Made by a program: the position numbers and the translations under genes. From an uncultured Anaerolineales bacterium (GTDB lineage Bacteria; Chloroflexota; Anaerolineae; Anaerolineales; UBA11858), in assembly GCA_964613985.1 (NCBI GenBank), contig CAZTJD010000007.1, positions 15,507 to 79,506 on the forward strand: DNA of 64,000 bases. The letters are read 5' to 3'. Positions 37,806 to 50,501 of this stretch are shown here, piece by piece. Within the stretch, counting starts at the first letter, position 1, and every line of letters begins with the position of its first letter. The notes under the pieces are model-generated. The model had not been told where the DNA came from, ran no database searches, and saw only the letters and a list, made by a program, of their open reading frames with translations.

Positions 37806-40800
37806 TTATTCAGTAGAAGACTCATCAAGAAGCTGATTTATTTTTTTTGCTAATGCTTCGACATCTGGTTTGGTGAATAAGGAAGAATGGTTCCCAGTTG
37901 TCCAAACAATTTCCACACCGACTGTTGAATATTCTTCCCAACCAAGCGTTGCTACTACTCCAGTATTCTCGATATCTTTTCGCTTCCAATCCCCGTAAAT
38001 CACATGAATCTTGCTAGGTAATGGCTGCGGTTTATAATTATTTGCATATTTCTGGTGGATTCGAACCAACTGCAATACACGTCCCATTGAGGAGGGGATG
38101 TTTAATTCTAAGAGATGTTTTTCTTGGTGCGCAAGTTCAGCAAAATCCGATCCCTGTAGGAATTCAGTTGTCATTGCAATACCTAGAATTCGATTAGCGA
38201 CCTGGGACAATTTGCGTTTTTTGTCTTCTGAAGACAATTTTCTTGATAGCATAAAATAAAAGCCGTTACGAAGATGGGGAATTATCGATTTTGAAACAGA
38301 AACAGTCCCTTTAAGTATCTTAAAGACCCTTGTGATTATTTGCTTCCATGAAGCGATCACCTTCTCGATTTTTCTCTGTGCTATATCTTCCTTTCGAACT
38401 GTAAATAAATCTGGTGGCTTCAGCCATGTATCAATAGCACCAAGGAAGGCGATTTTCTCCCCCTTTCGAATAAGGTTGTGAGCAATTTCAAAGACAAGGG
38501 TACCACCAAAAGACCAACCCGCAAGACGGTAGGGTCCTTTCGGTTGCACCTTTTGAATCCACCTGACATAATCTTCGGCCATTTCTTCAAGGGTAGAATA
38601 TGTAAGTTCATCGCTATAAACACTTGGATCCTGCAAACCGTAAATGGGTTGGTCATGCATATAAGGAACCAGATTGTAATACGGGAAAATAATTCCTCCA
38701 CCAGCATGGCCCAAAAACAATGGTGGTTTTGATCCCTTGGGTTGGATAGCTACAAGTGGCTGTGTTTGTTCCACAGTCAAGAAATGATTGGAGGTTTCTA
38801 CCTTATCTGGTAGATCTTCCCGGAGGTAACCTAACCTCTCAGCAATCTGCCAGGTTTTTTCTGCCAGGCAATCCCCACGGTAGGCTTCCTGCCAGCGATA
38901 GGCCCCTGACGCACTGATCCCCTCATGTTCAAAGAACCGTATATCCCCAATCATTTGTGATAACTCATGTAATGCCCCAGTCATCCTTTTCTCAGGATCA
39001 TCCTGTGGCTTTAGCATATCTTCGTGAATTTCGATCTCAAGGAATTCACAAACCTGCCCGATCACTTCTTCTGGCTTAGTGACCAATCCCTCATAACTCA
39101 CCCTCAGTTGTCTCTCCTCAGGTATTTCCTTCAAGAATCCTTCGATGTGCTCCTGGCTAATCGTCCAGATCGCCTCTGCCATTTCCTTTACTGTCAGGTG
39201 TGTCTCTCCCTTCAAGAACGGAGGGTAGAATACATGAAGCTTTGCCTTTTCAAACGATGGAATCATCGCATAGGGGTGCCTAATCAGATGAATGTACTTT
39301 ACATCTCGGAAGTTTTCCTCCATTCGTTGGAGCATGCTGGGGTCCAGAGCATAGTTAGGGGTCTTGTCCACAAACAACCGATCCCCTAACCAACTTTGCA
39401 TTTTCCCATAAAACGCCCTCACACTCATTCCCTCTTCTGCCCATCTCCCTAACGCTTTTCGCGCTTCTGCCTCACTCCAACCTCGTAAATTCATCAGGGC
39501 AACTACCACCCCATCTAGCCAGAAGCTGTCTCGCTCATTTGAAAAGGCTTCCTCCTGCTCCTTCAGAGTGTTATAGTTCATTAACTGCAACTCTGGCGGT
39601 GCAAATAACTTCGGATTGCCTCCTAACATTACTCTCAACAATGTCGATCCACTTCTTGGTGCACTCAGGATAAATACCGCTGGATCATTAATTGGCGCTT
39701 TCTCTTCCTCATCTCTTGGCGCCAGTTTTTTTACCATCCGTCTCAATCCATCAAAATCATCATCATTTATTCGTCTTATTACGGTTGTCCCCTGTTCAAC
39801 ATCTACTTCCTCTCCTAACAACCTTCTTACCCCTGTTGGATAGTTCTGCTCCAGGTAGGCACTTAATTTCTCAATCGTTGGTGCATCAAACAACGCTACC
39901 AGATAGAGATATTCCCCTAGTTCCTCCTGTAACCGGTTAATTAGCGTCGCTCCAAGCAACGAGTTTCCTCCAAGGTCGAAGAAGTTTGCCTTAACACTCA
40001 CCTCATCCTGCCCCAGCAACTCTCCCCATAACTCTGTTAGAACTTCCTCAAGTCTTGTCCTGGGACCAATATATCTTTCTCCTCTTGATAGCTCCGGTAT
40101 TGGGAGCCCTCTGCGGTCAATTTTGCCGTTCGGTGTCAGCGGGATTTTTTCCATCCATACATACGCTCCAGGTACCATGTAAGCCGGTAACCTCTTTCCC
40201 AATCTCTCGTTAAGGTCCTCCTCGATCCCTTCGTCCCCTACCAGATATGCTACCAACACCTTTACTCCAGGGATATCTTCCCTCAAAATTACCACCGCTT
40301 CTTTCACCCCATCTTCCTCCCTTAACACCGCCTCAATCTCGCCCAACTCGATCCGGTAACCCCTCAACTTCACCTGTTCATCTCTTCTACCTAAATATAT
40401 CAGGTTTCCATCTCCGAGGTACCTCACCATATCCCCTGTTCGGTATAGTTTTCCTTCTCCGCTAAACCGGTTCGTAACAAAAACCACCTCATTCTCCCCA
40501 TCCCGGTTCAGATATCCCGCGGTTACCCCGGCTCCTCCGATATACAACTCTCCAGGTAATCCGTCTGGTACCGGTTCGCCCCTTTCATCCAAAACGTAAA
40601 TCCGTACATTTGGTACAGGACGACCAATAGGAACGCGTGGATAAACGTAATTTTTACCCGGATAACACACTTCTTCAAACATCGTGGCGGTAACTGTAGT
40701 CTCAGTTGGACCATAGGCATTCAAAAACCTCATTGGCTTATTAAGCCGCTCCGACCAGATATGGAAGCTCATCAGGTTGACCTGTTCTCCCCCTAACAAT

Positions 40801-43800
40801 ATTAGCTTTAAGCTTTCTGGCACCTTTCTTTCCAGCCTCTCCATCTCATTAGCGGTATGGTGAAATACACTTGCTGGTAAGTGAAGATAATTAATCTTCT
40901 CTTCTTCAATAAAATCCAACAGACGGGCTCCTACCAACTCTGCAGGGGTTTTTGCAATCACGATCGTACCCCCATTCAATAGTGCCGGATAGATCCAATC
41001 TACAGCCCCATCAAAGGATATGGAAAAATATCCCAGAATTCGTTCACCTACTTCCATTCCCAGCCGACGCCTCATCCACCAGGCATGGTTTACAAGGTTC
41101 CTGTGCCTTACCTGTACACCTTTGGGAATTCCCGTAGTACCGCTGGTGTAGATGATATATACCAAGTCATCCCCAAAACTTCCTTTTTCAGGGTTATGGG
41201 GTGAGTTCCATCTTATCTCCTCAATATCACGATCCAGGCAAATGGCAGTCCCATCAAACCCTGGGATGTCTTTCAACAGGTCTTCCCTGGTTACCATGAA
41301 CCTTACCCCAGCATCCTCGATCATGAACTCAAGTCGTTTGATTGGATATCCCGGATCCATCGGGAGGTAAACGCCCCCTGCTTTCAGGATCCCCAATAAA
41401 CCTATCATCATTTCCAGGGATCGATCCAGGAATAATCCGACTACAATATTTTTCCTAACACCTTTCCTTATCAGCGTATGAGCCAATTGGTTGGCACGTT
41501 CATTTAATGCTGCATACGTGAGTTCATCACTATTGACTCGTAAAGCTATCGCTTGAGGTGTCTTCCTGACCTGTTCCTCCCACAATTCATGGATTCCCTG
41601 GTATTCTGGGTATGGTTCATTCGTTTCATTCCTCACATTGACCAGTTCATCACGCGCAGTTTCAGTTAGCAAAGGTATATGTGATATTGGTCGATCAGGA
41701 TTAGAGAGCAATCCTGATAACAGCTGTCTATAATGTAAATCTAAACGTTCAATGGTTTCTCTATCAAAGAGATCGGTATTGTAGCGAAATACACCTTGAA
41801 TCAGATCACCTGGTGCCTCGGTCAATGAAAGCATGAGATCAAGTCTCGCAACACCAAAATCGGGATGTAAGCCTTTCAGCACTAATCCAGGTAACTGAAG
41901 TTCACCAACATCTGCATTCTGAAACTGGAACCCAATCTGGAAAAGTGGATTCCTGCTGGAATCTTGTGCAGGATGCAGGTCTTCAACAATCATCTCAAAA
42001 GGTAATTCTTGGTAGTTGAAGGCATCCAATGCCATTTCTCGAACCCGTTCGAGCAGCTCTCGGAATGTCGGGTCACCAGAAAGGTCACCTCTCATTACAA
42101 GCATATTCACAAAGAAACCAATCAATCCCTCTGTCTCCATCCGCCCGCGGTTTGCGACAGGGGTTCCAACACTAATATCTGTTTCACCTGTATAGCGGTG
42201 TAAAAGGGCTAAATATCCTGCCAGGAAAATCATGAACAAGGTAGTATTAGTCTCTTTATTAAACGATTTCGCCATGCTAACATCACTAGCAGGAAGGGTT
42301 ATTACCTGTCGTTCACCTTTAAAGGTCTGTACGCGTGGCCTTACCCTTGCAGTTGGAAGTTCCAATGCTGGCGGAAGTGGAGTCAATTGGTTTCGCCAAT
42401 ATCTCATCTGGCTCTCTAAAACATCTCCCTTAAGATTACTACGTTGCCAGACTGCATAATCGACATATTGAATAGGTAACTCAGGTAAGTCGACGCTTTT
42501 ACCGTAGAGATGCGCTTCATAAGCCACCGAAAACTCCCGAATTAAAATTCCCAGTGACCAAGCATCAGATACAATGTGGTGTAATGTAATCAGGACAATA
42601 TGATCCTGATCCCCAACTTTTATCAACCTTACCCTGATTAGTGGACCATTCTCCAGATCAAACGGCTTATATACTTCCTCGGTTGTCAAACGATTTGCTT
42701 CTTCTTCACGATCATTTTCTGGCATCTCGGATAGATCAACAATTGGAATATCAAGTTTAAATGGAGGTTCTATCACTTGTACTGCATTTCCATCCACGAT
42801 AGGGAACCGCGTTCGTAGTACTTCATGTCGTTCGATGACGATATTTAAGCCCTTTTGAAAGGCTTCCAAATCAAGCTCACCGGCTAGTCGGAAAAAATTT
42901 GGAACATTGTAGATATACCCACTCGGTTCCAAGCGATGCATATACCACAATCTCCATTGGGCAAAAGAAAGTGGTAGATAACCTTCCCTAGAAACAGATT
43001 TGATCTTTAAGGCTTCCTCGTCATCCCCTTTAATAGTTTCCCCAAGCAATCTTCTCACTCCCAGAGGATGCTTCTCTTCCAAATACAGGCTTAAAGAATA
43101 AATGGTTGGTTTTTCAAAAATGGTGACCATTTTTACGTTTTCGCCAAGTTGCCCCTTTAGCCTGTTGATGAAGGTAGCACCAAGTAAGGAGTTTCCTCCC
43201 AATTCAAAGAAGTTCGCCTGTACACTGATCTCTTCCACCCCAAGTAATTCCGCCCACATCGCTGTAAGGTGGATCTCCAAGGGTGTTTGGGCTGGAACGA
43301 ATATTTCTCCAGTCTGAATATCCGGTACTGGCAGCCTTTCTCGATCAATTTTCCCATTTTGTGTCAGAGGTAATTCTTCCAACCATACATAAACACCCGG
43401 GATCATATAAACTGGTAAACGATCAGCAAGATATTGATGAAATATTTCTTTGGATACGCCTTCTTCATCTCCTACCAGGTAAGCTACCAGTTGTTTCACA
43501 CCTGGCACATCTTCTCTAAGCAACACAACTGCATCATGTACTTGTGGATGGGTTCGTAAAGCGTTTTCAATTTCTCTTAACTCAATACGATAACCTCGAA
43601 GTTTTACCTGGTCATCTGCGCGTCCCAGGAATAATAAATTCCCATCGGGCAGAAAACGCGCGATATCCCCAGTCCGATACATAAATGCATTTTCCTTTTC
43701 ATTAAAAGGATCCGGAAGGAATGACCCATTGGTCTGTTCAGGTTGATGTAGATACCCCGCAGTGACACTTTCACCACCAATATAGATCTCCCCAGGAAGA

Positions 43801-46800
43801 CCAATAGGTACAGGCTTTTTATTTTTATCTAGCAAATAGATTCGTACATTGGGGATTGGTTTTCCAATCGGTATCCTAGATTTTGGGAGTTCAGCCTCAG
43901 GGCTACTAATCATCTCATACAAAGTCGCTGTACAGGTGTTTTCAGTGGGTCCATACGCGTTTATGAATCGGACGGGTTTTTCGACTCGGTTCGACCATGA
44001 TAGAAGCCGATCCAATTCTAAAGGTTCCGCACCTACATGGACAAATTTCAAACAATCTGGTACTTTCACGTCTAGTCGATCCATCTCCATTACGGACTGA
44101 TGGAACACACTTGCAACCATATGGATGTAGTTTATCTGCTCCTTTTCTATGAATTCCAAGAGACTCGTCCCCACTAATTCAGTTGGATCCTTATGCATTA
44201 CAATTGTCCCACCACTCATTAATATTGGGAGAATCTCCTCAAAAGAAGGATCGAATGTGATTGTTGTAAATTGCAGCATTCGATCCCCTTCCTGGATTTG
44301 GTATATATTATTAATCCCAAAGATGTTATTCTTTAAATTGCGTTGCCTGACCATGACCCCTTTGGGGGAACCTGTCGTCCCAGAAGTATAAACAATGTAT
44401 GCTAAATCCTCCTCGTCCAATTCTACCTGGAGATTCGATCGATCATACTCCCGGAATTCTGCATCTTCCCTGTCGAGGACAATCTTCTCCCCTTCATATT
44501 TCTCAACCGCCCCGAAATTACTCTCTTGAGTTAACAAATAACCAGCGTTTGTATCATTCATCATGAACAAGATCCGATCACTAGGATATCTAGGATCCAA
44601 CGGCAAAAATACGCCTCCAGCTTTCATGATTCCCAACATCCCGACAATCATCTCCAATGATCGCTTCACACATAGTCCGACAACTTTATTTGCCCTCACT
44701 CCCTTCTCTACCAGGTAATGGGCTAACTGGTTTGCTTGTTCATTCAGCCCCCGATAGCTCAGTTCTTCCCCCTCTAGTTTTACTGCTACCAAGTCCGGCG
44801 TACGATCAACCTGTGCCTCGATTAAACTTATCACCCCTTGCTGTGAGGGATATATAACCCTTGTCTCGTTCCACTGTACCAACTGTTCAAATAACTCTTC
44901 TTCCCCCATGATCTCCAATTCGCTTAACTTTGCCTCCGGATTTTCCAGCACTTCTTCTAATAGCTTGAGATAATGCCTACCCATACGTTCTATTGTCCAT
45001 GAACTATACAGATCCGTATTGTACTCAAGTGTTCCTTTTATCTTTCCTGCATCCCCTTCAGTCATCGACAACATCAAATCCAACCTTGCCGCACTGAAGT
45101 CACTATCAATTTCTTCAAACCTCAAACCTTTAAGCTTCAGTTCGCCCACCTCCACATTCTGGTACTGGAATCCCACATCGAAGATCGGGTTGCGACTCGA
45201 ATCTCTTACTGGTTGTAATACATCTACTAACATCTCAAAAGGCAATTCCTGGTGCTCATACGACCTTAGAGACATTTCCCGGATCCTTTGTAAAAGCTCT
45301 AGAAAACTGGGGTCTCCACTTAGGTCCCCTCTCATCGCCAACATATTCACAAAGAAACCGATCAATCCTTCCGTCTCTGTTCTCCCACGGTTAGCAGCTG
45401 GTGTTCCCACACAAATATCCTCTTCGCCCGAATAACGTTGCAAGAGGACCATAAATGCTGCCAATAAAACCATGAAGAAGGTCGTATCTGTTTTACGATT
45501 TAGCTTCTTAGCCATCCCAGCGATTTTTGCTGGTAGTTCGATCTTATGTTGGTCCCCTTTGAATGTTTGAACTCGCGGTCGAACTGTGGCAGTTGGTATC
45601 TCTAAAACTGGTGGCAACGGTGTTAACTGGTTTTGCCAATATCGTATATGGCTATCTAGTACATCACCCTGTAGGTATTCTCGCTGCCAGACCGAATAAT
45701 CAACATACTGGATAGGCAAATCTGGTAATGTCACCTCTCTACCTTCGAGAAATGATCCATATAAGGAGGCAAACTCTCGCACAAAGATGCCAATTGACCA
45801 TGCATCAGCAACAATATGGTGCAAGCTCAAGAGGATGATATGAGTATTCTCTGCTTCTTTGATTAGCTTAACCCGAATCAAGGGACCGGTCGACAAATCA
45901 AATGGTGTCATGGCTTCTTCCGAAGCAATTTGTTTTGCTTTTGATGATCGTTGCTCTTCTGATAAGTCTGTCAAATCGATCAAGGGGATTTCCAGGTTAA
46001 ATGGAGGATCAATGACTTGTATAGGGTTGCCATCCACGATTGAGAATCGCGTCCGCAGTATCTCATGTCTTTGAATGATCGTTTCCAGGCTGCTTTGTAG
46101 CGCCTTTATATCAAGCTCTCCCACTAATCGGAACGACCCGGGCATATTGTAAGTTGACCCCCCCGGTTCCAGTTGATTCATGAACCAAAGCCGCTGTTGA
46201 GCAAATGATAAGGGAAGGTTCCTTTCTCTTGATACTGGTTGAATCTCGAAACCACCTCTACCTGCTTCTAATATGGGAAGATCTTCTCTCCAATATCCGA
46301 GCCTCTCCGCTATCTGCCAGGTTATTTCAGTCAGATAATCCCCACGATAGCCTTCCTGCCAACGGTACGCTCCTGACGCACTGATCCCTTCATGCTCAAA
46401 GAAGCGTACATCTCCAACCATACGCGATAACTCGTGCAATGCCCCTGTCATTCGCTTCCGCGGGTCTTTTTGAGGATATAACATGTCGTCGTGGAACTCG
46501 ATCTCTAGGAACTCACAAATTTCGTTAATCACTTCCTCAGGTCTGGTCACCAACGCCTCATAACTCACCCGAAGTTGTCTTTCCTTTGGTATTCCTCTCA
46601 GGAAACTCTCAATGTGCTCCTGGCTGATCGTCCAGATCGCCTCTGCCATCTCCCTAACGGTTAAGTTTGTATCTTCCTCTAAGAACGGGGGATAAAATAC
46701 ATGTAGCTTTGCTTTCTCAAATGAAGGTATCATTCCGTAAGGATGTCTAACCAGGTGGATGTACTTCGCTTCTTGGAAATCTTCTTCTATCCGTTTTAAC

Positions 46801-49800
46801 ATCCCAGGATCCAGGGCGTAGTTCGGGGTCTTATCTACAAACAATCGTTCCCCCAACCATGCCTGCATCTGTCCGTAAAACGCCCTTACACTCATCCTCT
46901 CTTCTGCCCAACGCTTTAAGGCTTCCCGAGCTTCAACCTCACTCCAACCTTGCAAGTTCATCAAGGCCATCACCACCCCATCCAACCAAAAGCTGTCACG
47001 CTCATTCGCAAATGCTTCTGCCTGTTCTTTAAGGTTGTTATAGTTCATCAACTGCAGTTCTGGCGGTGCAAACAATTCCGGGTTTCCGCCTAGAATCGCC
47101 CTCAACAGGGTAGATCCACTCCTTGGTGCACTTAAAATAAATGTTGCTGGTGTATTAACTGGCGCTTCTTCCTGCTTTCTTGGAACCAGTTTTTTCACCT
47201 TCTCCTTCAAACCTTCAATGTCCCCCCGTCTCATTCGCTTCATTAACGCAACCCCCTGGCTTATATCCAATTCTTCTCCTAACATCCTACCCACACCTAC
47301 CGGGTAGTTCTCTTCAAGGTAGACTCCCAGCTCCTCAATAGTCGGTGCATCAAACAGTGCTATCAGGTATAGATATTCCCCTAGTTTCGCTTGAAGCCGG
47401 TTGATAAAGGTAGCTCCTAATAACGAGTTACCGCCCAGATCAAAGAAATTCGCCTTGACACTCACTTCCTCCAGACCAAGCAGGTCACCCCACATCTCCG
47501 CTAAGAGTTCCTCTAATCTAGTTCTTGGTTTTACGTATGTTTCCCATCCTTCCATCACTGGCGCTGGCAACCCTTTACGATTAATTTTGCCATTCGGTGT
47601 CAGGGGTATTTCATCAAGTCTGACAAACGCTCCCGGCACCATGTATCCAGGTAACCTTTCCCCCAACTTCTCAATGAGTTCTTCTTCATCCACCTCTTCG
47701 CCTACCAGGTATGCCACCAGAATCTTCACCCCTGGCATATCTTCCCTCAACATCACTACGGCTTCTTCCACCCCTTTCTGCTCTCTCAAGACCGCCTCGA
47801 TCTCGCCCAACTCGATCCGATATCCCCTCAACTTCACTTGTTCGTCTCTCCTCCCTAAATAAACCAGGTTCCCATCTGGGAGAAGTTTAACTATGTCCCC
47901 GGTCCGGTATAGGTTCCCATCTCCTTCGAACCGGTCCATAACAAATGCCAGCTCGTTCTCATCTTCACGGTTATGGTACCCGGCAGATACCCCTGCCCCT
48001 CCAATGTACAATTCTCCTGGCAATCCTATCGGTACCGGTTCACCCCTTTCATTTAATACATAAACCCGTACATTCCCGAGAGGTTTCCCGATTGGAATCC
48101 GCTCCTTCCCTACCTCTCCCCCCGGCTCTAAGTTCAACGCGTAGGTTGTTGCCGTGATTGACGCTTCCGTCGGACCATACGCATTCACAAATAACATGGG
48201 TTGCCTTAATCGTTCTGTCCATCCTCTTAACCTATCTACCTCTACCTGCTCTCCTCCTACCAGTACCAACTTCAAACTCTCAGGCACCTTCAACTCCTGC
48301 CGTTCCATCTCGATAACTGTCTGGTGCCACACACTTACAGGTAGGTGTAAGTAATTGATATCATTATCCTCTATCTTCATCAGTAGGCTCATCCCTACCA
48401 ACTCTGCTGGATTTTCTACCACCACCACTGTCCCACCCTTCAACAATACTGGGAAGATGCTTTCCAGTGAAGCATCAAAAGAAATCGATATGTATTGCAA
48501 CATCCGGCCCCCTGCCTCGATCCCCAACCTTTTACCCATCTCCAAGGCATGGTTCACAAGGTTTTTATGTCTTACTGTGACGCCTTTTGGTATCCCTGTC
48601 GTACCGCTGGTGTAGATAAGATAGGCTAAATCTTCTCCACTGACTGTAACCCCAGGGTTCTCGACATTTTCCTGAGCGATCTCTATTTGTTCCCTATCCA
48701 GCACTACTATCTTTCCCCTATATTCTGGCAATCCGCTCACGAATTCTTCTTCTGTGATTAAAATCCCAGCACCAGAATCTTCCAACATCAACGCTAGGCG
48801 CTCTTTTGGATAGGTTGGATCCATTGGCAAGAATACCCCACCCGCTTTCATGATCCCCAATAATCCCACCACCATATCTACCGAACGTCCAACACAAAAA
48901 CCTACCACTTCACCGGGTTTAACGCCAACCTTCTTGAGATAATTCGCCAACTGGTTTGCACGTTCATTTAATTCGAGGAAGCTTAGTTCTTTCTCACCGT
49001 CCAATACAGCTGTTATTCGCGGGGATTTCTTCACCTGCTCTTCTAACAATTCATGAATCCCTCTCGCTGACGGGTAGACCGAACTTGTTTGATTCCAATT
49101 ATGTAATTGCTGATAAAGTTCTTCTTTGGAAACCAAGGGGATTTCAGCAATCTTTGCCTTGGGATCCGTAATAGCCTCATTGAGGAATCTCAAATAATAC
49201 CTTGCAAAGAGTTCAACTGTTTCACTTTTGAACAAATTCGTGCTGTATTCCATCCAACCATGAATTCCGAACTCGGATTCAATCAGGCTGATAGCTAAAT
49301 CAACAATGCTTTTCTTCGGATCGATCATTACTGGTGAAACATTGATCTCGGGTCCTTCATTCTCCGGCATCGGCCAATTCTGAAAGACAAACATGGTCTG
49401 ATACAACGAGGATCTCGCGAGATCTCGATCAGGATTTACCTCTTCTACAATCTTTGTAAACGGTATCTCCTGGTTTCGTAAACCCATCCACACATTAGAC
49501 TGGGTGTAATCTAATAATTCCTCAAAAGTTAGTTGATCATTAAGTCGTGTCCTAAGAGCCAACGTATTGATAAACAATCCCACCAGATTTCTTGTTTTTC
49601 GACCCTTACGTCCTGCTGTTGGAATACCAACAATAATATCGTCTTGACCTGTTAGTTGATATAGAAACCCTTTGTATGCCGCTAATAATACAGAAAACAG
49701 CGTAACACCATATTCACTGGTTACTTTTCTCAGCGAATCGAGCATCTCCTGCGGTATGATTAGAGGCACCCTCGCGCCATCCGTATTTTGTACTCTACTT

Positions 49801-50501
49801 TTTGGAAAATCACTGGGAAAATTCAAAACAGGTAATTCCCCCGCCAGTTTTTCTTTCCAATAGTTCAATTGTTTCTGCAGTTTCTCTTCTTGCTGACTTA
49901 AGTGATATTGTTCTAAATATTCCGAATATTGAATGCCGATCTCAGGTAGATCGGGGGCTTCATTCTTGACCCTCGCTTGATACATTTTCATAAAATCTTT
50001 AAAAATCACTCCCGCAGACCAACCATCTGAAATAATGTGGTGCATGGGAACTGAAATTATGTATTCAGTTTCAGCAAGTTTTATTAGAACAGTTCGAACC
50101 AAGGGACCTTTATTAAGGTCAAAGGGCTTTCTTGCCTCTTCAGCAGCAAGTTTTAAACCTTCTCTTTCCCTATTTTTTAAATCAATATGGTTCAAATCAT
50201 AAAATGTGAAATCGAGATCATTTTTCGAATGAACAACCTGCTTTGGTTCCCCATTAATGGTTGTTATCGTAGTTCGTAGACTCTCATGCCGCTCAATAAT
50301 ATCCTGGAAACAAATTCTAACAATTTCTGGATCTACGGGGGTATTAATCTTCAAAACTAGATCTGTAATGTGATTCGTGGGAGAATTAGGATTCAGCTGT
50401 TCAAGAAGCCACATTTGCTTCTGAGTATTTGTAAGCTCGAGCAATTTCTCTTCTAACATTTTTGATCCTTCATCTGAGATATTGGATTCGTCTGGTTCCA
50501 T
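37806..50501 (-). CDS. Trimodular NRPS with two embedded sulfotransferase domains: C-A-T-ST-C-A-T-C-A-T-ST-TE (4231 aa; alternative start 50459)
   Basis: Three C domains (HHIISDG, HHIVADA, HHIVSDA). Three A domains (YTSGTTGxPKG, NAYGPTE, YRTGD, NGK). Three T domains (all FFxLGGNSL). Two ST domains (SAPRSGSTLLR, RHPYxMIPS). TE (GWSFG, GAID, GNH). An AAGGA RBS 6 nt before the ATG at 50459 suggests that start. Confidence 0.97.
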   Translation of the reverse strand: MEPDESNISDEGSKMLEEKLLELTNTQKQMWLLEQLNPNSPTNHITDLVLKINTPVDPEIVRICFQDIIERHESLRTTITTINGEPKQVVHSKNDLDFTFYDLNHIDLKNREREGLKLAAEEARKPFDLNKGPLVRTVLIKLAETEYIISVPMHHIISDGWSAGVIFKDFMKMYQARVKNEAPDLPEIGIQYSEYLEQYHLSQQEEKLQKQLNYWKEKLAGELPVLNFPSDFPKSRVQNTDGARVPLIIPQEMLDSLRKVTSEYGVTLFSVLLAAYKGFLYQLTGQDDIIVGIPTAGRKGRKTRNLVGLFINTLALRTRLNDQLTFEELLDYTQSNVWMGLRNQEIPFTKIVEEVNPDRDLARSSLYQTMFVFQNWPMPENEGPEINVSPVMIDPKKSIVDLAISLIESEFGIHGWMEYSTNLFKSETVELFARYYLRFLNEAITDPKAKIAEIPLVSKEELYQQLHNWNQTSSVYPSARGIHELLEEQVKKSPRITAVLDGEKELSFLELNERANQLANYLKKVGVKPGEVVGFCVGRSVDMVVGLLGIMKAGGVFLPMDPTYPKERLALMLEDSGAGILITEEEFVSGLPEYRGKIVVLDREQIEIAQENVENPGVTVSGEDLAYLIYTSGTTGIPKGVTVRHKNLVNHALEMGKRLGIEAGGRMLQYISISFDASLESIFPVLLKGGTVVVVENPAELVGMSLLMKIEDNDINYLHLPVSVWHQTVIEMERQELKVPESLKLVLVGGEQVEVDRLRGWTERLRQPMLFVNAYGPTEASITATTYALNLEPGGEVGKERIPIGKPLGNVRVYVLNERGEPVPIGLPGELYIGGAGVSAGYHNREDENELAFVMDRFEGDGNLYRTGDIVKLLPDGNLVYLGRRDEQVKLRGYRIELGEIEAVLREQKGVEEAVVMLREDMPGVKILVAYLVGEEVDEEELIEKLGERLPGYMVPGAFVRLDEIPLTPNGKINRKGLPAPVMEGWETYVKPRTRLEELLAEMWGDLLGLEEVSVKANFFDLGGNSLLGATFINRLQAKLGEYLYLIALFDAPTIEELGVYLEENYPVGVGRMLGEELDISQGVALMKRMRRGDIEGLKEKVKKLVPRKQEEAPVNTPATFILSAPRSGSTLLRAILGGNPELFAPPELQLMNYNNLKEQAEAFANERDSFWLDGVVMALMNLQGWSEVEAREALKRWAEERMSVRAFYGQMQAWLGERLFVDKTPNYALDPGMLKRIEEDFQEAKYIHLVRHPYGMIPSFEKAKLHVFYPPFLEEDTNLTVREMAEAIWTISQEHIESFLRGIPKERQLRVSYEALVTRPEEVINEICEFLEIEFHDDMLYPQKDPRKRMTGALHELSRMVGDVRFFEHEGISASGAYRWQEGYRGDYLTEITWQIAERLGYWREDLPILEAGRGGFEIQPVSRERNLPLSFAQQRLWFMNQLEPGGSTYNMPGSFRLVGELDIKALQSSLETIIQRHEILRTRFSIVDGNPIQVIDPPFNLEIPLIDLTDLSEEQRSSKAKQIASEEAMTPFDLSTGPLIRVKLIKEAENTHIILLSLHHIVADAWSIGIFVREFASLYGSFLEGREVTLPDLPIQYVDYSVWQREYLQGDVLDSHIRYWQNQLTPLPPVLEIPTATVRPRVQTFKGDQHKIELPAKIAGMAKKLNRKTDTTFFMVLLAAFMVLLQRYSGEEDICVGTPAANRGRTETEGLIGFFVNMLAMRGDLSGDPSFLELLQRIREMSLRSYEHQELPFEMLVDVLQPVRDSSRNPIFDVGFQYQNVEVGELKLKGLRFEEIDSDFSAARLDLMLSMTEGDAGKIKGTLEYNTDLYSSWTIERMGRHYLKLLEEVLENPEAKLSELEIMGEEELFEQLVQWNETRVIYPSQQGVISLIEAQVDRTPDLVAVKLEGEELSYRGLNEQANQLAHYLVEKGVRANKVVGLCVKRSLEMIVGMLGIMKAGGVFLPLDPRYPSDRILFMMNDTNAGYLLTQESNFGAVEKYEGEKIVLDREDAEFREYDRSNLQVELDEEDLAYIVYTSGTTGSPKGVMVRQRNLKNNIFGINNIYQIQEGDRMLQFTTITFDPSFEEILPILMSGGTIVMHKDPTELVGTSLLEFIEKEQINYIHMVASVFHQSVMEMDRLDVKVPDCLKFVHVGAEPLELDRLLSWSNRVEKPVRFINAYGPTENTCTATLYEMISSPEAELPKSRIPIGKPIPNVRIYLLDKNKKPVPIGLPGEIYIGGESVTAGYLHQPEQTNGSFLPDPFNEKENAFMYRTGDIARFLPDGNLLFLGRADDQVKLRGYRIELREIENALRTHPQVHDAVVLLREDVPGVKQLVAYLVGDEEGVSKEIFHQYLADRLPVYMIPGVYVWLEELPLTQNGKIDRERLPVPDIQTGEIFVPAQTPLEIHLTAMWAELLGVEEISVQANFFELGGNSLLGATFINRLKGQLGENVKMVTIFEKPTIYSLSLYLEEKHPLGVRRLLGETIKGDDEEALKIKSVSREGYLPLSFAQWRLWYMHRLEPSGYIYNVPNFFRLAGELDLEAFQKGLNIVIERHEVLRTRFPIVDGNAVQVIEPPFKLDIPIVDLSEMPENDREEEANRLTTEEVYKPFDLENGPLIRVRLIKVGDQDHIVLITLHHIVSDAWSLGILIREFSVAYEAHLYGKSVDLPELPIQYVDYAVWQRSNLKGDVLESQMRYWRNQLTPLPPALELPTARVRPRVQTFKGERQVITLPASDVSMAKSFNKETNTTLFMIFLAGYLALLHRYTGETDISVGTPVANRGRMETEGLIGFFVNMLVMRGDLSGDPTFRELLERVREMALDAFNYQELPFEMIVEDLHPAQDSSRNPLFQIGFQFQNADVGELQLPGLVLKGLHPDFGVARLDLMLSLTEAPGDLIQGVFRYNTDLFDRETIERLDLHYRQLLSGLLSNPDRPISHIPLLTETARDELVNVRNETNEPYPEYQGIHELWEEQVRKTPQAIALRVNSDELTYAALNERANQLAHTLIRKGVRKNIVVGLFLDRSLEMMIGLLGILKAGGVYLPMDPGYPIKRLEFMIEDAGVRFMVTREDLLKDIPGFDGTAICLDRDIEEIRWNSPHNPEKGSFGDDLVYIIYTSGTTGIPKGVQVRHRNLVNHAWWMRRRLGMEVGERILGYFSISFDGAVDWIYPALLNGGTIVIAKTPAELVGARLLDFIEEEKINYLHLPASVFHHTANEMERLERKVPESLKLILLGGEQVNLMSFHIWSERLNKPMRFLNAYGPTETTVTATMFEEVCYPGKNYVYPRVPIGRPVPNVRIYVLDERGEPVPDGLPGELYIGGAGVTAGYLNRDGENEVVFVTNRFSGEGKLYRTGDMVRYLGDGNLIYLGRRDEQVKLRGYRIELGEIEAVLREEDGVKEAVVILREDIPGVKVLVAYLVGDEGIEEDLNERLGKRLPAYMVPGAYVWMEKIPLTPNGKIDRRGLPIPELSRGERYIGPRTRLEEVLTELWGELLGQDEVSVKANFFDLGGNSLLGATLINRLQEELGEYLYLVALFDAPTIEKLSAYLEQNYPTGVRRLLGEEVDVEQGTTVIRRINDDDFDGLRRMVKKLAPRDEEEKAPINDPAVFILSAPRSGSTLLRVMLGGNPKLFAPPELQLMNYNTLKEQEEAFSNERDSFWLDGVVVALMNLRGWSEAEARKALGRWAEEGMSVRAFYGKMQSWLGDRLFVDKTPNYALDPSMLQRMEENFRDVKYIHLIRHPYAMIPSFEKAKLHVFYPPFLKGETHLTVKEMAEAIWTISQEHIEGFLKEIPEERQLRVSYEGLVTKPEEVIGQVCEFLEIEIHEDMLKPQDDPEKRMTGALHELSQMIGDIRFFEHEGISASGAYRWQEAYRGDCLAEKTWQIAERLGYLREDLPDKVETSNHFLTVEQTQPLVAIQPKGSKPPLFLGHAGGGIIFPYYNLVPYMHDQPIYGLQDPSVYSDELTYSTLEEMAEDYVRWIQKVQPKGPYRLAGWSFGGTLVFEIAHNLIRKGEKIAFLGAIDTWLKPPDLFTVRKEDIAQRKIEKVIASWKQIITRVFKILKGTVSVSKSIIPHLRNGFYFMLSRKLSSEDKKRKLSQVANRILGIAMTTEFLQGSDFAELAHQEKHLLELNIPSSMGRVLQLVRIHQKYANNYKPQPLPSKIHVIYGDWKRKDIENTGVVATLGWEEYSTVGVEIVWTTGNHSSLFTKPDVEALAKKINQLLDESSTE
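38826..39674 (-). other. NRPS sulfotransferase domain ST2 (between T3 and TE)
   Basis: FILSAPRSGSTLLR 5'-PSB loop, APPEL, VDKTP, RHPYAMIPS 3'-PB motif. Confidence 0.93.
46293..47141 (-). other. NRPS sulfotransferase domain ST1 (between T1 and C2)
   Basis: Same motifs as ST2. Gapless hand alignment with ST2 gives 233/283 identical residues (~82%). Confidence 0.93.

Follow-up and report, generated by a model that had tools for sequence, protein, structure and literature searches.

Which amino acids does a nonribosomal peptide synthetase (NRPS) load when all three of its adenylation (A) domains carry non-standard pocket codes, and on what do the two sulfotransferase (ST) domains built into the same protein act? 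Both questions are raised by a 64,000-nucleotide stretch from an uncultured Anaerolineales bacterium (NCBI GenBank assembly GCA_964613985.1, contig CAZTJD010000007.1, positions 15,507 to 79,506; hereafter the window), whose open reading frame list and translations hold a single NRPS frame of 12.7 kb, labelled P0001 and encoding 4231 amino acids (aa). The Pfam scan, alongside which NCBIfam was also run, gives the domain order C-A-T-Sulfotransfer_3-C-A-T-C-A-T-Sulfotransfer_3-Thioesterase (C, condensation; T, thiolation or carrier domain; the thioesterase is abbreviated TE below). Our answer is a tentative one, held with slightly less than even confidence: the first and third A domains (A1 and A3) would load a phenolic substrate, tyrosine or a close analogue.

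37806–50501, minus strand: NRPS gene, C1-A1-T1-ST1-C2-A2-T2-C3-A3-T3-ST2-TE (open reading frame list, Pfam, NCBIfam)

The pocket codes were read from the A4–A10 segments of the three domains, aligned with MAFFT (L-INS-i) to the PheA segment of GrsA (as a control, it yields its own known code, DAWTIAAICK). The codes obtained, DAEHLGAITK for A1, DPEHHGACTK for A2 and DGDHLGAVTK for A3, were returned unchanged by an independent hmmalign alignment of 1781 A domains, and are those of a preliminary description made from the letters of the window alone. That description had mapped A1 without gaps over 234–280 (GrsA numbering); the alignment is in fact gap-free over 231–283, so that positions 235–278 are fixed, and positions 299 and 301 are anchored by the GGE motif (GAE in A2) and 322–331 by NAYGPTE. 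The features it singled out are likewise present, namely an acid at 239 (Glu in A1 and A2, Asp in A3) and His278 in all three domains and, in A2, Pro236, His299 and VGAEP (aa 2156) in place of GGE. Position 330 is Ile in A1, Cys in A2 and Val in A3, and the residues invariant across the three domains are Asp235, His278, Gly301, Ala322, Thr331 and Lys517. The range of 40650–48520 given earlier for the three codes encloses every pocket codon from 235 to 331 and leaves Lys517 of A3 just outside its lower bound.

47547–49061, minus strand: A1 domain, aa 481–985, DAEHLGAITK (MAFFT against GrsA, hmmalign)
48153–48476, minus strand: A1 pocket codons 235–331, D676, A677, E680, H719, L747, G749, A774, I782 and T783 (mapping)
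47586–47588, minus strand: Lys517 of A1, K972 (coordinate mapping)
43311–44837, minus strand: A2 domain, aa 1889–2397, DPEHHGACTK, GAE for GGE, no ST after it (MAFFT, hmmalign)
43929–44252, minus strand: A2 pocket codons 235–331, D2084, P2085, E2088, H2127, H2155, G2157, A2182, C2190 and T2191
43350–43352, minus strand: Lys517 of A2, K2384 (coordinate mapping)
40083–41597, minus strand: A3 domain, aa 2969–3473, DGDHLGAVTK (MAFFT, hmmalign)
40689–41012, minus strand: A3 pocket codons 235–331, D3164, G3165, D3168, H3207, L3235, G3237, A3262, V3270 and T3271
40122–40124, minus strand: Lys517 of A3, K3460 (coordinate mapping)

Odd codes of this kind might simply reflect decay, with A2, and perhaps A3, being drifting or inactive copies. 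The codes of A2 and A3 are indeed unique among the 1781 A domains (the closest agree at 7–8 of 10 positions), and the distribution of the gene is sporadic: among 200 genomes of this order, an embedded ST of the type discussed below is confined to two (L091 and L092), both from another family, with none from the bacterium's own family. We nevertheless regard decay as very improbable. All three domains match PF00501, PF13193 and TIGR01733, as expected of amino acid-activating ANL adenylation domains; a regular-expression search finds motifs A3 (SGTTGxPKG), A5 (NxYGPTE), A7 (YRTGD), A8 (GRxDxQVKxRGxRIE) and A10 (NGKxDR) intact in each; Asp235 and Lys517, which bind the α-amino and α-carboxyl groups, are retained throughout; the 12.7-kb frame is open; and the paralogues keep a pairwise identity of 52–61% (61% between A1 and A3) together with the acid at 239.

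The phylogenetic position of the domains points the same way. In a tree of 997 A domains, A1 and A3 are sisters (support 0.986) and form a monophyletic group with A2 (support 1.0), whose own sister (support 0.94) comprises 40 domains with codes of the form DAEH[LFMVI]G[ALMV]I[TAS]K. The whole DAEH group is nested in a larger clade with an acid at 239 that includes DAEDIGTIVK, DTEDIGTIVK, DVENAGVVTK, DAENVGAITK and DAENIGAITK. The code of A1 is identical at 10 of 10 positions to those of seven Calditrichota-type domains (P0160–P0163, A1/A2) despite an overall identity of 44–50%, which argues for strong purifying selection on the pocket. An acid at 239 combined with His278 is found in just 12 of 797 A domains in a broad sample of large NRPSs (code frequencies were the only use made of a HMMER profile search with A1–A3 against 1.84 billion representatives, which ranked proteins by summed multi-domain score and returned mega-NRPSs only). 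The pattern is not due to chance, and its presence in all three window domains follows from their being paralogues. Taken together, the sequences indicate that A1–A3 are functional paralogues in an uncharacterised clade defined by Asp235, an acid at 239 and His278, and that their codes represent a conserved specificity class rather than noise.

The DAEH domains are found in proteins some 3000 aa long that read C-A-T-ST-C-A-T-C (P0160–P0190), and the few with source names come from Calditrichota, including the cultured Caldithrix abyssi DSM 13497. There the domains belong to large polyketide synthase (PKS)-NRPS lines in the order PKS, A(D[AQ]ENIGAITK), to which an ST may be added, A(DAEH)-T-ST, A(DAEH)-T, and then Glu-like, Phe and Thr/Asn modules. 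In Caldithrix abyssi a VapB/VapC (PIN) toxin–antitoxin pair lies between two NRPS genes of the cluster (L089:19069-19664). Within the module structure of P0001 (38826–49100), module 3 is a mosaic, with C3 59% identical to C2, A3 closest to A1 at the identity given above and ST2 81% identical to ST1; since in the Calditrichota relatives module 2 already comes without an ST (C-A-T-ST-C-A-T), the third module has the look of an added copy. The converse scenario, in which module 2 lost its ST, was ruled out on the same two grounds, the absence of this ST from module 2 of the relatives and the C2-like, A1-like and ST1-like parts of module 3.

What, then, would such a pocket hold? The top-scoring single solved A domain is A1 of ApnA, from the anabaenopeptin synthetase of Planktothrix (PDB 4D4G–4D57), with 468 bits against 346 for PheA; for the pocket segment alone it reaches 184 bits, other single A domains no more than 141. 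ApnA A1 binds both Arg and Tyr by means of Glu204 and Ser243, the equivalents of 239 and 278 (PMC5311044; PMC11253843), and ApnA variants with Ala331 (DVESIGAIAK) load both amino acids (PMC5311044). The window pockets resemble it in Glu239 (Asp in A3), Gly301, Ile330 (in A1) and a small or aliphatic residue at 322, and the A1 code shares 6 of 10 positions with DVESIGAIAK, the exchange of Ile for Leu at 299 being conservative. They differ from it in a naturally occurring His278 (Ser or Asp in ApnA), in Ala, Pro or Gly at 236 (Val in ApnA) and in Thr331 (Ala or Glu in ApnA), so that the acid at 239 is the ApnA-type hallmark found in A1–A3, and the ApnA residues at 278 and 331 are found in none of them. 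ApnA A1 furthermore lacks an attached ST, and its overall identity to the window domains is only moderate. Introducing His at 278 into ApnA A1 (S243H) produced a 100-fold shift towards 4-azido-Phe, a para-substituted Phe (PMC11253843).

Comparison with PheA leads to the same part of the pocket, as the only non-conservative changes in A1 replace Trp239 by Glu and Thr278 by His, two residues that in PheA face the bound ring at its para position. Outside them, the pocket resembles the aromatic pockets of PheA and ApnA, and residues 236, 301, 322 and 331 are small. The changed residues would place hydrogen-bonding groups at the tip of a long side chain, and the pockets may consequently select a long polar side chain, most likely that of tyrosine or a phenolic analogue.

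The preliminary description had taken a different direction and proposed, on the premise that an acid at 239 is common in basic pockets, that the substrates may be diamino or other non-proteinogenic acids. In its full form, this reading has the acid at 239 hold Lys, Orn, Arg, 2,4-diaminobutyric acid (Dab), 2,3-diaminopropionic acid (Dap) or a hydroxylated relative, whose side chain the STs would N-sulfonate or O-sulfate. Among the known basic codes, Lys (DAESIGSVCK), Orn (DVGEIGSIDK) and Dab (DLEHNTTVSK), the last pairs Glu239 with His278 as the window domains do, and DLEHNTTVCK is observed in a homologue of the syringopeptin synthetase SypC; the larger clade around the window domains additionally holds the Lys-like DAEDIGTIVK and DTEDIGTIVK. 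The premise is sound in that Glu239 contacts the ε-amine of Lys in Pls_A and, in ApnA A1, the guanidinium of Arg (PMC11253843), and that ApnA codes with Glu239 load Arg (PMC5311044). It is not specific, given that the same Glu of ApnA A1 binds Tyr and that a cyanopeptolin domain at the position of Ahp (3-amino-6-hydroxy-2-piperidone), DVENAGVVTK, also has the acid (PMC2533009). There is also a precedent for the chemistry in sulfazecin, where the carrier-bound Dap is N-sulfonated just before release by the TE, by SulN acting in trans (PMC11298585). However, besides the acid at 239 the window pockets lack another acidic or strongly polar residue at any of positions 278, 330 and 331, such as the Orn and Dab codes have and the Arg-only ApnA variants, which add Asp278 and/or Glu331 (DVEDIGAIEK; PMC5311044). 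Furthermore, the neighbourhood of the NRPS gene contains no supply genes for Dap, Dab or another non-proteinogenic acid, the window has no SulG/H-like (Dap supply) genes, and the TE motif is GWSFGG rather than the Gln-Cys-Asn of monobactam formation. With the evidence from the STs described next, these points weaken the basic reading, which is no longer the leading one and which we consider unlikely.

Both STs are of the CurM type. In alignments to the STs of CurM (PDB 4GBM) and of an olefin synthase (PDB 4GOX), which ST1 matches with 183 and 166 bits, respectively, the loop that binds 3'-phosphoadenosine 5'-phosphosulfate (PAPS), PRSGSTLL, and the Glu of the PPEL motif are conserved. This Glu is reportedly the catalytic base of the CurM ST.

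46299–47201, minus strand: ST1, CurM-type, aa 1101–1401 (hmmsearch, 4GBM alignment)
46428–46430, minus strand: Leu1358 of ST1, in HELS; the other ST1 motifs are the PAPS loop APRSGSTLL, PPELQL (aa 1146) and KLHVFYPPF (aa 1265)
38832–39737, minus strand: ST2, CurM-type, aa 3589–3890, with Leu3847 at 38961–38963 (hmmsearch)

When the ST region was used as a database query, 651 long NRPS/PKS proteins matched at E ≤ 1e-10, and an embedded Sulfotransfer_3 domain was present in 120 of 120 among the matches listed. From 129 proteins, 177 ST domains were parsed, and 148 A domains stand directly upstream of an ST. Their codes are of the Thr type (DFWNxGMVHK) in 49 cases, Ser (DVWHxSLVDK) in 33, Tyr (DA[SA]TxAAVCK) in 23, DxEH in 27 and other DxE types in 4, with a remainder of 12 that includes 3 resembling 4-hydroxyphenylglycine (Hpg) codes and some Gly or Val types (a literature string search ties DVWHLSLIDK to Ser, DILQIGLIWK to Gly, DFWNIGMVHK to Thr and DAFFLGVTFK to Ile). 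Ser, Thr or Tyr codes thus account for 105 of the 148: embedded STs mostly come after hydroxy-amino-acid modules, and DxEH is the one large class with no assigned substrate.

In the ST tree, all DxEH-linked STs fall together in one clade with a support of 0.994, two of whose 29 leaves are neighbours that have other codes. Its sister (support 0.87) is an ST that follows a canonical Tyr module, P0224 A3, and the clade has co-evolved with its A-domain clade. When the columns of an alignment of 147 ST domains were searched for those that separate Tyr-linked from Ser/Thr-linked STs, the best proved to be that of aa 1358 in P0001, the Leu of HELS. It holds Glu in 63 of 81 Ser/Thr-linked STs and in all three of both the Lys-like (DAED)-linked and the Gly-linked ones. 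Tyr-linked STs, from at least three separate lineages, never have Glu here (Trp in 10 and Leu in 12 of 23), Met is present in 2 of 3 Hpg-like-linked STs, and every one of the 27 DxEH-linked STs has Leu. At two more sites, where most other STs have an acidic residue, the DxEH-linked ones have a neutral one (PPELEL becomes PPELQL, and LDQ/LEQ becomes LHV), and their three-residue insertion (HVFYPPF) and His1267 substitution are shared only with the Tyr-linked ST of P0224. The loss of three acidic residues argues against a cationic acceptor; the STs behind the Lys-like DAED codes, which keep the Glu, lie far from the DxEH-linked ones in the ST tree. The STs thus favour an aromatic hydroxyl over a side-chain amine as acceptor, and column 1358 might predict the acceptor of embedded STs in general.

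All of this presumes that an ST acts on the residue loaded by its own module. Alternatively, the residues of A1 and A3 would not be acceptors, the STs acting elsewhere on the chain (on an N-acyl hydroxyl or an upstream residue), and the codes would say nothing about sulfation. Codes of the Gly (DILQLGVIWK), Val (DAFWLGGTFK) or Ile type (DAFFMG[VA]TFK) occur in some 5–8% of the modules linked to an ST, so that the residue loaded by a module cannot in every case be the acceptor; in L091 and L092 the STs come after the Ile/Val-type DAFFMG[VA]TFK, a residue without an obvious sulfate acceptor. In two other proteins, P0156 and P0176, glycine-type modules (DILQLGVIWK and DILQIGVVWK) are directly followed by an ST, and there the acceptor must lie elsewhere on the chain. 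P0001 moreover begins with a C domain, which needs a donor. Yet ST1 and ST2 are nearly the same domain and would meet very different chains, a single residue and a tripeptide, so that what they share is the pair of sister A domains upstream; across the 148 modules, too, the ST clade follows the A class of its own module. Action elsewhere on the chain accordingly strikes us as improbable, and the residues loaded by A1 and A3 are probably the sulfate acceptors, in keeping with the earlier suggestion that the side chain of the substrate accepts the sulfate.

A more serious competitor keeps the acceptor in place and changes its nature: another neutral polar residue (Gln or one derived from Glu, His, Cys, or a non-proteinogenic, hydroxylated acid whose synthesis is encoded elsewhere in the genome) could hydrogen-bond to Glu239 and His278 and be sulfated on that group, possibly creating a leaving group, as the activating function of CurM-type STs in their known roles might suggest. 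A Cys code, Cys(1) DHESDVGITK, has Glu239 and the ending ITK in common with the window code. On the other hand, an amide nitrogen is a poor sulfate acceptor, column 1358 places the DxEH-linked STs with those of aromatic acceptors, and inspection of the flanking genes showed no hydroxylase or other supply gene adjoining the NRPS. We judge this possibility somewhat unlikely.

Several of the observations that lend it weight count at the same time against a tyrosine-like substrate, and others do so on their own. Canonical Tyr codes (Stachelhaus 1999) are DASTVAAVCK, DALVTGAVVK and DGTITAEVAK, to which the window codes are by eye identical at no more than 4–5 of 10 positions, below the 8 of 10 set for a match, and the same genome has a canonical Tyr-like code, DASTVAAVGK, in another NRPS (contig C164). 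Of the nearest outgroups, DAENVGAITK heads a nostopeptin-like Nostoc NRPS at a position where co-linearity would presumably call for Gln, and the DAENIGAITK module of Caldithrix abyssi also bears an ST. The link between the DxEH-linked STs and a larger clade of nine Tyr-linked STs has a support of 0.007, the Gly-, Val- and Ile-coded modules with STs belong here as well, and a single-sequence AlphaFold2 model of A1 has a mean predicted local distance difference test (pLDDT) score of 37, too low for pocket geometry. No substrate was found assigned to any DxEH code in the literature searched, just as the preliminary description had been unable to match the codes to a known substrate: they are absent from the text supplementary files of PARAS, DeepAden and NRPminer, and a string search with the three codes and related DAEH, DAEN and DVEN strings gave as its sole useful match DVENAGVVTK, a near relative tied to a different substrate at the Ahp position (PMC2533009).

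On balance, a tyrosine-like substrate is the most economical explanation because it combines the ApnA- and PheA-like pocket with the evidence from the STs, and the lack of nearby supply genes fits it. In the mechanism that we envisage, the carrier-bound residues of modules 1 and 3 would each be O-sulfated with PAPS by a dedicated CurM-type ST (that the reaction is O- rather than N-sulfation we infer from the ST residues), module 2 would load a related residue that is left unsulfated, and the Ser-type TE would release a doubly sulfated tripeptide, possibly N-acylated.

37809–38723, minus strand: terminal TE with a Ser nucleophile, GWSFGG (Pfam PF00975; motif from the translation)

Several known systems share elements of this arrangement. 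Canonical Tyr, Ser and Thr modules followed by an embedded Sulfotransfer_3 domain, found in uncharacterised NRPSs of Acidobacteriota (Thermoanaerobaculia), Chloroflexota and others, have the same A-T-ST layout and the same CurM-type ST family; they use textbook codes (DASTVAAVCK, DVWHxSLVDK and DFWNxGMVHK), whereas the window modules pair DxEH codes with an ST subclade of their own (PPELQL, HVFYPPF and Leu1358). CurM and the olefin synthases, with their homologous STs, end in the same carrier-ST-TE order (as ACP-ST-TE, ACP being the acyl carrier protein), but P0001 has as carrier a T domain of an NRPS, charged by an A domain for amino acids, and ST1 sits mid-line, before a C domain. The unit upstream of the window STs is an A-T pair rather than KS-AT-KR-ACP (ketosynthase, acyltransferase, ketoreductase and ACP), and with no β-hydroxyacyl substrate evident an olefin-type (decarboxylative) ending is not expected. 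The sulfazecin pathway, too, sulfonates a carrier-bound C-terminal residue just before TE release, but SulN is separate, module 3 of SulM loads Dap and the TE of SulM has Gln-Cys-Asn (PMC11298585); with GWSFGG in the window TE, a monobactam- or sulfazecin-type ending was rejected. In OciA, the cyanopeptolin synthetase of Planktothrix, an in-line ST also yields a sulfated product, although there it acts on a glyceric acid starter that an FkbH-like domain has loaded, instead of on an amino acid that an A domain has selected (PMC2533009).

The gene lies among housekeeping genes. One flank carries a DnaJ/CbpA-like gene, tex, a DUF255 thioredoxin-like gene and an aldehyde:ferredoxin oxidoreductase, and the other pheA followed by an ilvE-leuB-cimA-leuDC-leuA-ilvCNBD block, whose IlvC is 78–81% identical to its homologues in metagenome-assembled genomes (MAGs) of Anaerolineales. 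The source genome, itself a MAG (231 contigs, 4.5 Mb), encodes the accessory functions elsewhere: a 238-aa frame of the size of an Sfp phosphopantetheinyl transferase on contig C26, and an adenosine 5'-phosphosulfate (APS) kinase domain in a 567-aa frame on contig C72, for PAPS supply. In the latter locus (C72:12707-19318) the APS kinase frame may be a Sat-CysC fusion, with a weak Sulfotransfer_3 match some 6 kb away, and the locus is a possible source of PAPS for the several STs of the genome. Two further small NRPSs are present, A-T-C-A-T-TE with the codes DASTVAAVGK and DAFVTALIWK (C164:1292-7400, plus strand) and C-A-T-TE with the code DAESTSTIVK (C76:9113-13200, plus strand), and their TE regions are, by eye, similar to the window TE (PLF..H..GG..FPYYNL... 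GWS.GG). Either could be a partner of P0001, whose first C domain needs a donor. The same MAG contains an olefin-synthase- or CurM-like PKS, ACP-KS-AT-KR-ACP-ST (C146:3450-9500, plus strand), whose ST has the CurM-type PPELHLL motif and 35% identity to ST1, and whose frame stops without a TE on the 10.4-kb contig.

Sulfated nonribosomal peptides are rare, and in the literature searched we came across no account of an NRPS-embedded domain that sulfates an amino acid residue in-line. The window would join an orphan class of A-domain specificity to an in-line ST, and the phenolic acceptor is a concrete, testable prediction; the product can be sought directly in a cultured organism, Caldithrix abyssi DSM 13497, where this A-ST pair is also present. 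If correct, this assignment would give prediction tools a new specificity code and a sequence marker for the acceptor class of STs. A bolder proposal, to our mind a doubtful one, is that an A domain with an acid at 239 and His278, coupled to a private CurM-type ST subclade, constitutes a distinct module type that installs a sulfated residue in-line, either sulfotyrosine or an N-sulfonated basic residue (a SulN-like sulfamate made in cis). Were it to hold, sulfotyrosine would be made without a free-standing tailoring enzyme, and ST residue 1358 (Glu as opposed to Leu, Trp or Met) would serve as a marker of acceptor class across hundreds of orphan clusters.

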